Shown: piece by piece, positions 4,219 to 10,142 of the stretch
Position numbering within the stretch: position 1 is the stretch's first letter
How the letters are laid out: each line of letters opens with the position of its first letter
Virus record (IMG/VR): IMGVR_UViG_3300020460_000009
Location: 1 to 34,378 of that record
Length of the DNA: 34,378 bases
Origin: a virus
Lineage: Duplodnaviria > Caudoviricetes
Direction: 5' to 3' (one strand)
Program-made: the position numbers and the translations under genes
Notes under the pieces: generated by a model
What the model saw: the letters and a program-made list of their open reading frames with translations, nothing else
The model's database searches: none
Told to the model about the DNA's origin: nothing

Positions 4219-4428
4219 CTATAAATATTTATTCCAATGCTCATTCCACATTTCTAATGTAATAGCATTATATGTTTCGTCGTGCATATCACTTGCTTTT
4301 GCATTTGGAAATAGTGGTGATGATAATATGGTAGGTTTGAATGGTCGTACAGCAAATCTAAATTCTTGTATTGTTTCAGACTCGCCAAGTCTTGCTACGA
4401 CTTCATCAAAAATTTGATCTTCTCGCAT
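4219..4428 (-). CDS. Hypothetical protein (69 aa)
   Basis: RBS AAAGGA; same orientation as the operon. Confidence 0.7.
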   Translation of the reverse strand: MREDQIFDEVVARLGESETIQEFRFAVRPFKPTILSSPLFPNAKASDMHDETYNAITLEMWNEHWNKYL

Positions 4429-4450
4429 AATATATTCCTTTCGTACTATT

Positions 4451-4478
4451 ATTATACTATTAATATACTATTATGCAA
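4451..4478 (-). promoter_or_regulatory. Possible sigma70 promoter (TTGCAT-16-TATAAT)
   Basis: Consensus-like hexamers in an AT-rich gap upstream of 4428. Confidence 0.3.
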
Positions 4479-5367: not shown

Positions 5368-5628
5368 CTAAAGTTCATACTTTTCCTTTCGTAGTAGATC
5401 AGCTAGCCCCTTAGCTTGTTCTTTAAGTATGGTTAGAGAAGTGGTGATGCGTTCCAAATTATCTTGCGATAACTCTTTCGCTTCACAATTATGCAAAGCC
5501 ACTTCGATAGCACCCGTGCATTTTAATATAGTTCGCATCTCATATTCACACTTAATTAGGTATTGTAGAGCGTAAAGTTCAGAATTCAACTCCCACTCAT
5601 ACTGTTGTTCTAATGCTTCAATCGCCAA
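5368..5628 (-). CDS. Hypothetical protein (86 aa)
   Basis: ORF in the early operon; TTG start. Confidence 0.6.
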   Translation of the reverse strand: MAIEALEQQYEWELNSELYALQYLIKCEYEMRTILKCTGAIEVALHNCEAKELSQDNLERITTSLTILKEQAKGLADLLRKEKYEL

Positions 5629-5827
5629 TAGTTTTCACCCCCTTATTAATCATTGCTTTTAGTTCTAATAGCCGTGCATAATTAAAACCACAATCATTTG
5701 TATCCATTTCTTTAGCACCAATGACCTCTTCCCATTCGTTTACTAAGTCAGTAAGACAGTAAAAAAAATGTTTTTTATTATTGAATGCAGAATTTTTAGT
5801 CAGTTTTACTGATAGAGCCATTTGCAA
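5618..5827 (-). CDS. Hypothetical protein (69 aa)
   Basis: Overlaps its neighbours; AAAGGA upstream. Confidence 0.6.
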   Translation of the reverse strand: MQMALSVKLTKNSAFNNKKHFFYCLTDLVNEWEEVIGAKEMDTNDCGFNYARLLELKAMINKGVKTIGD

Positions 5828-6137
5828 TCCTTTCTAGTTTGTCTACAGCTACAGCAATTTCTTTCATATAACCAACATATTCTTCAGAGATCATATTGTT
5901 TTCTATTTGCAATAAACAAAGCTGTGTCAAGAACTTCATTTCTTCATAGTGGTGCATAGCCAAACCAAATTTGTCGTGTGATAATTTATCTTTGGCATAC
6001 AAGTCAGATATCTTTTCTTGATATTCATTAGACATCTCTCGGAATGTATTGATCCGATTGATTTCTTTGACGTGTTCTTCACGCACAATAGTTTCATAAT
6101 GATGTTGGCGTGAATCTTCTTTTAAATACTTAGACAT
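5796..6137 (-). CDS. Hypothetical protein (113 aa)
   Basis: Strong RBS AAACAAAGGAGTATT-ATG. Confidence 0.8.
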   Translation of the reverse strand: MSKYLKEDSRQHHYETIVREEHVKEINRINTFREMSNEYQEKISDLYAKDKLSHDKFGLAMHHYEEMKFLTQLCLLQIENNMISEEYVGYMKEIAVAVDKLERIANGSISKTD

Positions 6138-6507
6138 AATATACTCCTTTGTTTTTAAGTCTAATATAGCTATAGCTACATCTCGTTCTGTTAAAGATGT
6201 AGCTACAGTTTAAATGTTTTTGTTTTTGTCACCAACGGCATAACTAACCTGATCAACAGTAAGTATCACAGTCCGTCTACAAGGTACAAATTCCAAAAAC
6301 CTTTTGCCAAGCATAGGATTCAAACCTATTTAGTCTTGACATAGTTGCACATTGCTAGTCAGTTTTATAGCAACTAGTCGGGCTATGCAACCATAGTGCA
6401 GGACAGTATATGAGGAAGGATTTGTGTGTCCTGCATTATGGTGGCACTCGCCTTGCATAGTGCTATGATAGTGACCCCCCCCGAGTGAGGGACGAGTGAG
6501 GGGGGGG

Positions 6508-6681
6508 TCACTTACTCTTGGATATATGTTTGACCAATTCAACTCCATATATTGATATGTATGTACAAAAGTATAGCAATGATGTCCAGAATTCAAATTC
6601 ACTCTTATGCCAACCATCTATGACGACAATAGAAGAATAAATAAATACTGAAAATAAAATTAAATGATAACGAAAAGCCAT
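6508..6681 (-). CDS. Small two-TM membrane protein (57 aa), not in the ORF track
   Basis: AAAGGA RBS; MAFRYHLILFSVFIYSSIVVIDGWHKSEFEFWTSLLYFCTYISIYGVELVKHISKSK. Confidence 0.65.
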   Translation of the reverse strand: MAFRYHLILFSVFIYSSIVVIDGWHKSEFEFWTSLLYFCTYISIYGVELVKHISKSK

Positions 6682-6702
6682 ATTACAATCCTTTATGAAT
6701 AT

Positions 6703-6739
6703 AAAAAAACTCTGTACCGAATGAACGATACAGAGTTTT
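6703..6739 (-). terminator. Rho-independent terminator of the 177-aa gene
   Basis: Minus strand: ctctgtatcg-ttcatt-cggtacagag followed by T7, about 10 nt after the stop codon. Confidence 0.8.
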
Positions 6740-6749
6740 ATGATTAGTA

Positions 6750-7283
6750 TTAAATGTCGGTTGAGTATTTAGAATTAGTTTTCATATTGTTTCGCTTCTT
6801 CATCTCAAGATGTTTAGAAACGTCATCAACTAATTTTGCCACATCTGATTCAGAATGACCATCTAAACCAATGAAATCACCGACAAACTTATTAAACAAC
6901 TGAACATATAACTCAATCAATCGTTTCATATTTTTAACGACTTCCTGAGCTTGACCACATTTGGAACGTTGTTCTGTAATCTTTTCATCTCCATACAAAG
7001 ATTCTCGTTCCTCCATTTGGTCAAGAGTGTTCTCCAAACTGTTAAGATAATTTTGTTTATTATCTCTTTGTGAATGTAGATAATTTAATGTTCTCCCATA
7101 CAATAAGATGTTATCAATGTTCCAAGTAATGTCGTAACTTTCATCAGTATAAGACATACCATCAGAAATAGGTGGAACCATTGAGGAATCCATCTGCTCT
7201 GTGAACGCTTTGACAGTATCATCAAGGGTGAGTAATTTAGAAGAAACATTTTGTGCTCTTGTTGTTGTTGTAGAATTTGCCAT
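6750..7283 (-). CDS. Orphan acidic, helical/coiled-coil protein (177 aa); first gene of the leftward arm
   Basis: RBS AAGGAG before ATG at 7283 (MANSTTTT...); has its own terminator. Confidence 0.85.
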   Translation of the reverse strand: MANSTTTTRAQNVSSKLLTLDDTVKAFTEQMDSSMVPPISDGMSYTDESYDITWNIDNILLYGRTLNYLHSQRDNKQNYLNSLENTLDQMEERESLYGDEKITEQRSKCGQAQEVVKNMKRLIELYVQLFNKFVGDFIGLDGHSESDVAKLVDDVSKHLEMKKRNNMKTNSKYSTDI

Positions 7284-7359
7284 ATCAATTCTCCTTTCTT
7301 TGTTAGTTTTGATTGACGCATTCAACTATTCATATCCAGATTTCACCTACAACATATGC

Positions 7360-7390
7360 ACCATACCAAGGAACGACTATGGCCTGTCAA
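7360..7390 (-). promoter_or_regulatory. Putative sigma70 promoter TTGACA-19-(TG)TATGGT with AT-rich UP region
   Basis: Perfect -35 and extended -10 upstream of 7283; the spacer is longer than the usual 17. Confidence 0.5.
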
Positions 7391-7490
7391 AAAAAATATT
7401 TGCAACAAACCAAGGAGTAGGGGGATTTCCCCCAGAAATCCATATCTTTTTGACTCCCACAAGAGGCAAAAAGATTGACCTATGACTATG

Positions 7491-8124
7491 GGATTGTTAG
7501 TAAATATTTATTTTGATGCAATGTTGTAGGTGAAATCTGGCATATGACATAGTAGAATCGGCAATCCAAACTACCCAAAGAGAGGGGAATAGATATGCAA
7601 ATACTACAATAACAACAGGAGTGCAAAATGTTTCTTCTAAATTAGGAGCAACAGTATCATTTAGTATATTGTCAAAGGGTTCACAGAGTAGATGGAATGA
7701 CGATATGTGTAACCTATTTCAGATGGTATGTTGTTACTGATGAAAGTTACGCTCATTACTTGTGGTTATTGATAAATGTATGGGAAACTTAAATTCTCTA
7801 CATTTGCAAAGAGTTCAAAATTATCTTAACAGTTTGGAGAACACCCAAATGGAGCGATAATTTTTGTATGGAGGTGTAAAGATACAACGTTTTAATGTGG
7901 TCAAGCGAAGGAGTAAAATATGGAATGATTGATTGAGTTATATGTACATTTGTTTTTGTCGGAGATTTTATTGGTTTGGGTGGACAATCTGAATGTGGTG
8001 AAATTAGTAGATGATGTTTCATCTTGAGGGAAGAAGGAAACAAGTGAAAACTGATTCACTCAACCCATTTAGTACTAATCATAAAACTGTGTATCCTCAT
8101 TTGGTACAGATTTTTTTAGATTCA
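7491..8124 (+). repeat. Right arm: non-coding degenerate inverted copy of 6696-7411
   Basis: Colinear similarity with many 1-8 nt indels, no open frame, and wobble-biased substitutions. Confidence 0.95.
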
Positions 8125-8190
8125 GAATAAACAAAGAGTGCGAAGCACACCGATAGTTAGTATGTTGACTTTTTTAACAGTTGCTGATAT

Positions 8191-8580
8191 ATGAAGATTA
8201 TGTCCGTTGCAATAAAAGAAAGCAATCAAATTACTCCCAAAGCAAAGAAGTTAGTTGATACTCTCGTAGCTACGGGATGTACAATAACTGAAGCGTCAAA
8301 ACTCGCAGGATATAAAGGAAACTCATCAAGAGTAAGTGCAAGTCGTATGCTACGAAATCCAAAGGTACAGCAGTATATGTTTGAACAGATACAACATAAC
8401 TTGGGGATGAGTGCAGTTAAAGCGCAATCAAGGTTGCTTGACTTATGTTCTGGTGCGAAGTCAGAGTATGTACAACTTGAAGCCAGTAAGGATATACTTG
8501 ATAGGGCAGGATTCAAAGCACCAGATAAACATCAACATATGGTCAAAGGTGATTTCTCAATCAATATTGACCTCAAGTGA
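8191..8580 (+). CDS. terS: Terminase small subunit
   Basis: ITPKAKKLVD...TEASKLAGY...ASRMLRNPKVQQY...ASKDILDRAG. Confidence 0.85.
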   Translation: MKIMSVAIKESNQITPKAKKLVDTLVATGCTITEASKLAGYKGNSSRVSASRMLRNPKVQQYMFEQIQHNLGMSAVKAQSRLLDLCSGAKSEYVQLEASKDILDRAGFKAPDKHQHMVKGDFSINIDLK

Positions 8581-8778
8581 TATCAAGGACTGTTTTTTTG
8601 CACATCCACCTGTGTAAGCAGGTGGGGTCTAAAAAATACCCTTGCATCTTATAGAGAAGTCCTACTCACTCGTTAGAGTCGTTTAAGGTTCGTTGCTTGT
8701 AATTTTTTTTTTTTTCTGTTAAGGTTCGGTTATGGTTACTTACATAATTGTATCAATGATCTTGTACGTGGTATTCTA

Positions 8779-9099
8779 ATGGCTAAATCACCGGCGTGGC
8801 AAAGAAAGGCAGGAAAGAATCCTAAAGGAGGATTAAATGCAAAAGGTCGTGCATCTTATAAAAGACAAACAGGTGGTACATTAAAAGCACCGGTCAAGTC
8901 TGGAGATAATCCTAGACGGGCATCTTTTTTAGCACGGATGGGAAATATGCCGGGGCCTGAACGAGATAGCAAAGGTAGACCAACTCGTTTACTTTTGTCA
9001 TTAAGAGCGTGGGGTGCCTCAAGTAAAGCTGATGCAAGACGTAAAGCCAAAGCAATGTCAATACGATTAAAAAATAAAAAAAAGAAAGGAAAGAAATAA
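8779..9099 (+). CDS. Highly basic conserved phage protein
   Basis: MAKSPAWQRKAGKNPKGGLNAKGR...RRASFLARM, a type common near terminases of marine phages. Confidence 0.85.
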   Translation: MAKSPAWQRKAGKNPKGGLNAKGRASYKRQTGGTLKAPVKSGDNPRRASFLARMGNMPGPERDSKGRPTRLLLSLRAWGASSKADARRKAKAMSIRLKNKKKKGKK

Positions 9100-9155
9100 T
9101 GCCCGGATATAAAATGCCAAAACCAATGAAAACTAAAAAGAAGAAGAAGAAGTAA
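9099..9155 (+). CDS. 18-aa lysine-rich peptide MPGYKMPKPMKTKKKKKK
   Basis: TAATG coupling at both ends; AAAGGA upstream. Confidence 0.6.
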   Translation: MPGYKMPKPMKTKKKKKK

Positions 9156-9346
9156 TGAAAGGCGTTCCTCATTACGATAAAGATGGTAAAGAACACAAAG
9201 GCGGAACTCATAAAATGCCTGATGGTTCTTTACACTCTGGCAAGACACATACATCTTCTAGTAAAAAATTATTTCACTTTAAAGACTTGTCAGCCAAAGT
9301 AAAAAGAAAAGTGCTTATGTTGACAAAAAAGAAAAAGCAAGGATAA
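9155..9346 (+). CDS. Basic His-rich hypothetical protein
   Basis: HKMPDGSLHSGKTH motif; coupled start. Confidence 0.8.
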   Translation: MKGVPHYDKDGKEHKGGTHKMPDGSLHSGKTHTSSSKKLFHFKDLSAKVKRKVLMLTKKKKQG

Positions 9347-9353
9347 TAACATT

Positions 9354-10142
9354 ATGGCTTATACAGGAACATACGAACAAGAATTACGAAAAAATCCTAC
9401 TGACTATAAACTTCGTGCAATGGGAAAACGAAAGTATGAACTTAGAAGACGTGAAGATGGTAAAGTAACTATTTCTACTAAAGGCGAACCAAAGAAACGT
9501 GAAGATTTTAGATCAGATAAGAATGCTATTGAATCAGAAAGAAAAAGTAGAAAACGAACAAAAAGTATTTTTGATGCTGTTAAAAAAGTAAAAGAGGAAC
9601 AAAAATCAAAAGAACAAAAAGGATCGCCATCTAAACAAAAAGAAGTTAAAACAAGTAAAGATGATGTTCGTAAAACAGATAACGAAGGGGAAAGAAAAAG
9701 AAAAATAGAATCACAAAATAAACAAAGAAAAGATGTAAGTATTCCTAGTCAAGCACTTGAAAATTTAGCAACAGGAACAGCGGCATTTAGTTTATTAGCA
9801 GGAGGATATGGATTAAAAAAATTAAAAGAAGCAAAGAATAGACAAAAGTTACAAACGGCTGTGAACAAAATAAAGGATTTACCAAAAGATCAACAAAAAG
9901 AAGTAGGAAAAAGAATTGGTAAAAAAATGGCAGAAAAAATGAAAAATGCCAAACCTTCTCTTAAACAAAAAATTAAAACCCAACTTGCAAAATTAAAACA
10001 AAAACTTGCCTCTGGATTAAAAAGCAAACTTACAGCAAAAACAGGTGGCTCAAGAACAGGAGCACCTGCAGGAATGGGAGTAGGTGGCACACCTTTTGGT
10101 GGTAAGGATTTTGATGGCAGACGGAAAAAAACAATCTTCTAA
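9354..10142 (+). CDS. Lys-rich hypothetical protein (262 aa)
   Basis: Long ORF with an upstream AGGA. Confidence 0.8.
   Translation: MAYTGTYEQELRKNPTDYKLRAMGKRKYELRRREDGKVTISTKGEPKKREDFRSDKNAIESERKSRKRTKSIFDAVKKVKEEQKSKEQKGSPSKQKEVKTSKDDVRKTDNEGERKRKIESQNKQRKDVSIPSQALENLATGTAAFSLLAGGYGLKKLKEAKNRQKLQTAVNKIKDLPKDQQKEVGKRIGKKMAEKMKNAKPSLKQKIKTQLAKLKQKLASGLKSKLTAKTGGSRTGAPAGMGVGGTPFGGKDFDGRRKKTIF

Follow-up and report, generated by a model that had tools for sequence, protein, structure and literature searches.

Gene 1, the first gene of a leftward early operon in the phage genome analysed here, is faced across the genome's strand switch by a non-coding inverted copy of its own transcription unit, and the two arms are predicted to form one 1.4-kb rod that folds better on the + strand, which is also the template strand of gene 1. 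The copy is called the mirror in what follows, and the whole stretch of 34,378 nucleotides the window. The element is real, selected and family-wide, and the mechanism that we attach to it is a proposal. By analogy with promoters that act on single-stranded DNA, we suggest that the mirror may be a stand-in partner strand for single-stranded + DNA, on which host RNA polymerase would read gene 1; we give this reading a probability of about 0.45. No account of such an element was found in the literature searched, a scope that mostly excluded subscription papers.

Genome context and architecture

The window represents a podophage genome of 34.3 kb that assembled as a circle, with a 77-nt end repeat. 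Its early genes run leftward on the - strand and terS, terL, portal, capsid and tail genes rightward on the + strand, and a scan of 48 proteins against PHROGs gave a virion gene set of the complete dsDNA podophage type. Among cultured phages its closest relative is Pelagibacter phage EXVC031P Hodr (OQ414635.1), with 82.6% identity in TerL and 84.7% in the capsid, from which a SAR11 host is likely; the capsid is 34.5% identical to that of HTVC010P, which places the phage outside the HTVC010P-type pelagiphages. Among the 48 proteins there was no PHROGs match to a relaxase or transfer gene, which speaks against the leading region of a conjugative element, and none to a polymerase, primase or helicase. 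Matches were obtained for a replication-initiator-like HTH protein, a YqaJ exonuclease and an SSB, whose gene sits in the same early operon as gene 1. Two large proteins were inspected as possible virion RNA polymerases: one of 1366 aa matches internal virion proteins and one of 795 aa matches nothing in PHROGs.

The rod is the sole long inverted repeat of this genome (score 374, against 32 for the runner-up) and is centred on the strand switch; its parts are listed in Table 1. The earlier note had placed the mirror at 7491-8124, of which 7491-7513 proves to be part of the central stem. Identical rods occur in three further loci (L001, L002 and L114), and a DNA contig of run X3 covers 5800-8240 with 0 differences, although one of these four copies may be the window's own source. 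These copies rule out an assembly artefact.

Table 1. Parts of the rod and of the early/terS junction, in window coordinates.
Feature	Position	Strand	Description
Left arm of rod	6693-7363	+	Gene-1 template strand, from ~80 nt upstream of the ATG to 57 nt past the stop
Gene-1 terminator-like hairpin and U tract	6698-6739	-	Intrinsic type; mirror ends just beyond
Gene 1	6750-7283	-	First gene of leftward early operon; 177-aa protein
Side hairpin	7361-7382	+	Missing from mirror; 5-bp stem with compensatory changes among relatives
Central stem	7387-7517	+	At the genome's strand switch; 80-86% conserved between both full-mirror lineages
Two-hairpin head of central stem	7423-7441 and 7444-7475	+	C-rich loops
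Mirror	7514-8127	+	Inverted copy of the gene-1 transcription unit; frameshifted and non-coding
Weak sigma70-like site in mirror	7530-7558	+	17-nt spacer, -10 TAGAAT; candidate only
GCGAAGC-type mini-hairpin	8138-8148	+	Directly after mirror; may double as - strand terminator
Promoter-like site before terS	8165-8193	+	TTGACT, 17 nt, TATATG
terS, terminase small subunit	8191-8580	+	First late-region gene; phrog_51, E 2.7e-13

The central hairpins covary among relatives. The sigma70-like site in the mirror is without a counterpart on the gene's own strand and is retained in all five mirrors of gene 1. The triloop of the mini-hairpin is lost in one gene-1 relative (L112) and is absent at this place in a second full-mirror lineage described below. 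The promoter-like site before terS lies at the start of a block common to close relatives and is kept in nine full-mirror loci; within 8165-8202, its predicted start coincides with an ATG at 8200, suggesting a leaderless mRNA.

Strand bias and folding of the rod

Alignment of gene 1 with the mirror gave 596 aligned columns that are 88.8% identical, interrupted by 36 small gaps (27 gene-only, totalling 75 nt, and nine mirror-only, totalling 18 nt), with a longest perfect run of 29 bp. Transversions, which like the gaps go unmentioned in the earlier note, account for 38 of the 67 mismatches. Read from gene to mirror, the transitions within the rod are strongly one-sided, with a ratio of (A>G + C>T) to (G>A + T>C) of 27:2 (14 A>G, 13 C>T, 1 G>A, 1 T>C; p 1.6e-6), as the earlier note had claimed by eye. 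Five alignment scorings gave the same picture (31:2, 31:5, 28:2, 42:9 and 30:3; p 1e-7 to 1e-5). The accompanying remark that no clear G>A or T>C was found holds inside the clean helix, where the ratio is 23:0, whereas close to gaps one or two transitions do run the reverse way.

That the + strand is the favoured folding strand, also proposed earlier, was confirmed with both sets of energies. Over 6680-8140 the RNA fold of the + strand is at -751.7 kcal/mol and that of the - strand at -642.7 kcal/mol, with 35 and 9 G-U pairs, respectively; the DNA folds are at -452.5 and -414.7, with 27 and 2 G-T pairs. The preference is a matter of degree, since the - strand still makes ~570 pairs, and the one-way bias by itself does not distinguish RNA from DNA.

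Co-evolution of gene and mirror

The same bias is seen in four further loci that carry gene 1 (L003, 27:2; L113, 17:4; L115, 18:5; L112, 30:3). Across five phages and 304 confidently aligned columns, the gene varies in 62 and the mirror fully tracks it in 43 of these; 56 columns carry at least two Watson-Crick pair types, and in several a wobble state is intermediate between two Watson-Crick states. Where the columns are both variable and mismatched, A/G (20) and C/T (15) predominate over G/A (2) and T/C (1). Most wobble-forming changes fall in the mirror. Gaps and mismatches hold the same positions from phage to phage, and within a phage, multi-base blocks and a 3-nt indel occur in both gene and mirror, a sign that sequence is copied from arm to arm.

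The bias is local to the rod: in 15 overlapping comparisons, the flanking genes showed no + strand excess of polarised substitutions. Cytosine deaminates far faster than adenine, so spontaneous deamination, offered in the earlier note as an alternative cause, is improbable in a rod where A>G is as frequent as C>T; the unbiased flanks and the co-evolution of mirror with gene also speak against it.

We read these patterns, from the sequences, as purifying selection on the + strand duplex, probably accompanied by patchwise template switching. Template switching at quasi-palindromes, which can homogenise inverted-repeat arms without selection (PMC8604942), would account in the same way for the block changes copied between arms here. 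The known process perfects short repeats (PMC8604942), whereas here bulges persist over 600 bp. Three database proteins (P0006, P0008 and P0009) begin as gene 1 and run on into mirror sequence with its deletions; they are either real arm-swapping inversions or library or assembly chimeras.

Mirrors in related phages

A second lineage (L015/L017/L111, L118 and L016) shares the central element (80-86%) and has a different first gene with a full mirror of its own, 91-93% identical to that gene with about 50 gaps. Homology between the first-gene families of the two lineages is not detectable (E 0.096). Extending the comparison to homologous genomes, as the earlier note had proposed, divides the material: the four other gene-1 loci repeat the bias, whereas the second lineage shows none that is significant (8:6, 9:6, 6:6 and, in L016, 4:9), its + strand still folding somewhat better. 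Since the strength of the bias is lineage-specific, the bias alone does not identify the folding strand everywhere. The nine full-mirror loci belong to two gene families, and in every one of them the stem runs on for 56-58 nt after the stop codon, to a point just past the terminator.

We collected 80 terS loci, of which 68 had enough upstream DNA. An inverted repeat scoring at least 40 lies upstream of terS in 52 of the 68 relatives, compared with at most 27 in 12 shuffles, and the element recurs beside many unrelated-looking first genes. The short mirrors sit at the same early/terS junction as the full mirror, also in the cultured Hodr, and homologues of the window's gene 1 have arms of 51, 97 and 168 nt, from which we take the full mirror to be an extension of a short one; within this one gene family, arm length runs from 50 to 670 nt. 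In all 36 loci measured, the starting point of the arm is 48-191 nt upstream of the ATG of the first early gene. Its far end is variable (-128 to +591): 21 of the 36 arms cover the start codon and 15 stop at least 26 nt before it, so the part common to all is the promoter zone and not the ribosome site. This sharing of the promoter zone is left unexplained by a model acting on the mRNA.

Isolated mismatches counted in one locus for each of 27 groups are G-T in 50 cases and A-C in 13; without the window the counts are 35 and 12 (p 0.001), and by group 15 against 5. The + strand folds better in 20 of 25 groups, two long rods being left out. Hodr has the same gene order as the window and a mirror at its first early gene; unlike that of the window, this is short (250 nt, over the start of the gene), with many tiny bulges and few mismatches, and both strands fold alike. 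The gene-1 proteins of Hodr and the window have no detectable homology. No comparable mirror was found in HTVC010P, MEP301 or Vibrio phage 1.257.O (best scores 56, 30 and 28, against 601), the repeat of HTVC010P being weak and AT-rich. A 16-nt motif at the centre of the element gave 27 viral matches, mostly by chance.

DNA or RNA

Folding as DNA should favour G-A over T-C, and among isolated mismatches we found no such excess (26 against 31). A second comparison was of mini-hairpins, surveyed in 63 upstream regions from 27 clusters with 100 shuffles. Mini-hairpins of the G/C-closed cGNAg type number 29 on the + strand (expected 6.7) and 2 on the - strand (expected 5.9); by cluster they occur in 13 of 27 on the + strand (shuffle mean 4.7, maximum 9 in 100) and in one on the - strand. 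The triloop with a C-G closing pair is thus enriched on the template strand of relatives, with one copy in the window (8138-8148). RNA tetraloops are not enriched (cUUCGg, 2 against 1.0; GNRA with a 3-bp stem, 18 against 19.2). Against this, control motifs are partly raised: gGNAc is found 18 times against 6.8 by locus and 6 against 4.7 by cluster, and cGNRAg with a 2-bp stem 24 times against 6.7. The window's own mini-hairpin, which may be a - strand terminator and is altered in L112, counts on the same side. On the - strand, G/C-closed GNA mini-hairpins occur in a single locus, L060, which has two of them and may be arranged the other way round.

GNA mini-hairpins gain greatly in stability as DNA over RNA, and they are present at the phage G4 origin, RSF1010 ssiA and the N4 virion-RNAP promoters (PMC13037366). 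As in those systems, GCGNAGC/CCGAAGG mini-hairpins lie on one strand, here the template of the early genes (PMC13037366); unlike there, they show no constant spacing to a start, they are present in only 13 of 27 clusters, and they are not accompanied by a match to a phage primase or RNA polymerase. Their strand specificity lends independent support to the single-stranded DNA state that the earlier note had raised. A search of Rfam over 5500-9500 gave five sub-threshold matches, none at gathering level, and no ribozyme. In contigs of three public RNA runs with a small share of the sequence, two 151-nt pieces fall on the gene arm; they carry no strand information and favour neither molecule.

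Proposed mechanism and alternatives

Promoters that act on single-stranded DNA are known from conjugative plasmids and single-stranded DNA replicons. Judged by analogy, the element appears to resemble such a promoter, or an origin, most closely and to stand apart from every known one by spanning an entire gene. Because the + strand is the gene-1 template, a folded single-stranded DNA template seems to us the likeliest reading. The + strand would be exposed at the junction, either by resection of a genome end near terS or by rolling-circle displacement, and would fold back, as DNA, into a pseudo-duplex comparable to the plasmid Frpo promoter extended over a whole gene. In its short form the element would provide a duplex promoter; in its full form it would also supply the non-template strand down to the terminator, which could let the transcript be displaced and released. 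Selection would remove A-C mismatches and tolerate G-T on the + strand, while template switching would copy short patches between the arms with bulges kept and perfect runs staying below 30 bp.

Frpo lets host polymerase transcribe plasmid leading genes from single-stranded DNA (PMC11541004). The likeness to Frpo and ssi sites is one of anatomy: ahead of the genes expressed first, one strand folds back and mimics a duplex, this strand being the template, and SSB is encoded in the same early operon (PMC11541004). A link of DUF932 to plasmid leading regions is absent from the main text of that source (PMC11541004). The phage element differs in belonging to a tailed dsDNA phage, for which single-strand transfer is not known, in a stem of 50-670 nt that can span the whole gene and its terminator, and in -35/-10 boxes that are not clearly conserved, being clear in three lineages and weak in the window. 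In those three lineages (L052/55/56, L053/58/59 and L068), a TTGAC -35 box is present in both arms and a good -10 box in the mirror only. As a family rule, a better -10 in the mirror was not significant (p 0.29; 14 against 8 of 24 clusters); the real -10 contrast was equalled with 104 of 684 permuted matrices, and whole promoters stood at 27 against 21 of 49 loci. In the window itself, the best-scoring promoter is on the gene's own strand and not in the mirror, and the mirror -10 could be a plain rightward dsDNA promoter. In L011-L014, the -35-like and -10-like boxes of the mirror, ~120-300 nt upstream of terS, are separated by an inserted hairpin of 20-24 nt, so that neither arm has a normal duplex spacer (12 and about 36 nt); the spacer there might be set by a three-way junction.

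A broader form of the proposal, which we regard as doubtful, is that one genome strand at the early/terS junction is exposed in widespread marine tailed phages, that gene 1 is transcribed from a self-folded heteroduplex, that the genome in this lineage holds a second, non-coding partner strand for a whole gene and that the same mirror promoter drives gene 1 from single-stranded DNA and the late genes from dsDNA, as a strandedness switch. If a single-stranded template is used at all, abundant marine dsDNA podophages would pass through a functional single-stranded state, a stage unexpected for a tailed dsDNA phage, and the full-gene mirror would be a new way of making a gene readable from one strand. 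Whichever molecule folds, the non-coding arm of 600 bp, which follows a rapidly changing gene base by base and yet retains its bulges, is a natural experiment in the selection of nucleic-acid structure, and the cultured member Hodr (host HTCC1062) puts the element within direct experimental reach.

The same + strand fold and mini-hairpins would also be expected if the folded DNA had a role in replication or packaging only, as a single-strand origin that primes the complementary strand, or as a fold-back cap or terminal-repeat intermediate at a genome end beside terS. The element does adjoin terS, and the initiator-like HTH protein, YqaJ exonuclease and SSB, together with the missing polymerase, primase and helicase matches among the 48 proteins, would suit such a role. 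Contig ends near terS are a poor guide to genome termini, since divergence between strains breaks the assemblies at that place. Rolling-circle replication has been suggested for the distantly related Skadi-1 (PMC10504331), and Frpo itself, according to the title of a cited work, does both jobs. We nevertheless consider this restriction to replication or packaging unlikely, as it leaves unexplained both the promoter-zone anchor of 36 out of 36 loci and why the arm should, for two gene families, end at the terminator.

Hepatitis delta-like agents and obelisks carry one ORF on one arm of a rod, and this anatomy is matched here by one helical-protein ORF on one arm of a bulged rod of 1-1.7 kb, the other arm being non-coding. 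The element might accordingly work as RNA, either as a + transcript forming a bulged 600-bp rod (a caged antisense RNA, a nuclease decoy or a scaffold for the gene-1 protein) or as a rightward mirror RNA acting as a sense decoy. The G-U bias, the larger advantage of the + strand under RNA energies, the lack of a G-A over T-C preference and the -10-like site in the mirror all agree with an RNA. The enriched loops are nonetheless those of DNA and not RNA tetraloops, in 15 of 36 loci the whole arm sits before the ribosome site, and no conserved + strand promoter was seen at the left end of the rod. The ATG in the mirror is broken no more than by chance (12 of 20, 10 expected). Compared with viroid-like RNAs, the whole-element rod with an ORF on one arm is present, whereas neither a ribozyme, a gathering-level Rfam match nor an autonomous circular RNA was found; the element is instead fixed in phage DNA, continuous with the genome, and its arm varies in length between 50 and 670 nt inside a single gene family. 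A function as RNA is in our estimation no likelier than a pure replication or packaging role.

A functionless inverted duplicate, kept alike by template switching and biased through deamination of an often single-stranded + strand, appears very improbable. Homogenisation of this kind needs no selection (PMC8604942), and the blocks changed in both arms and the placing of most wobble-forming changes in the mirror are what it would produce; but gaps and mismatches have not been erased and keep their positions from one phage to another, A>G is at least as common as C>T, the flanks are unbiased and the element recurs with many unrelated-looking genes. Least probable of all is antisense or cis-repression on the - strand, by a transcript that enters through the mirror and pairs with gene-1 mRNA: the ~570 pairs of that strand, the opposite leaning of L016 and the 21 of 36 arms that cover the start codon would allow it, but the bias is on the wrong strand, with 27 A-C mismatches on the - strand in the window, a - strand terminator-like hairpin stands directly before the mirror, and 15 of 36 arms miss the ribosome site over which a cis-antisense or type I toxin-antitoxin leader would pair, so that the earlier argument against simple silencing of the mRNA is upheld.

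The gene-1 protein and minor features

The gene-1 protein is predicted to form four helices with a long coiled-coil hairpin. It has no family match in PHROGs or Pfam and no Atlas match; eight close and two distant full-length homologues were found, and a fold search returned only generic coiled coils or unnamed phage proteins. Predicted models of both first-gene families have the same four-helix order and long coiled-coil hairpin, and across the family the first early genes encode helical proteins of some 110-200 aa that have diverged strongly. By sequence comparison, they are possibly one fast-evolving superfamily. In ~60 terS loci the first early gene occupies a hypervariable slot of helical coiled-coil proteins, in about 25 clusters with weak cross-matches.

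Gene 1 is followed by a small hydrophobic ORF of 57 aa (6508-6681, - strand) with look-alikes in L005, L007, L009 and L026, and downstream of it lies a very G+C-rich hairpin (6469-6512) with a weak, sub-threshold match to Rfam DUF3800-X. Further along the early operon are two leader-like copies, 72% identical (2841-2887 and 4425-4471), which are possibly a shared regulatory site.
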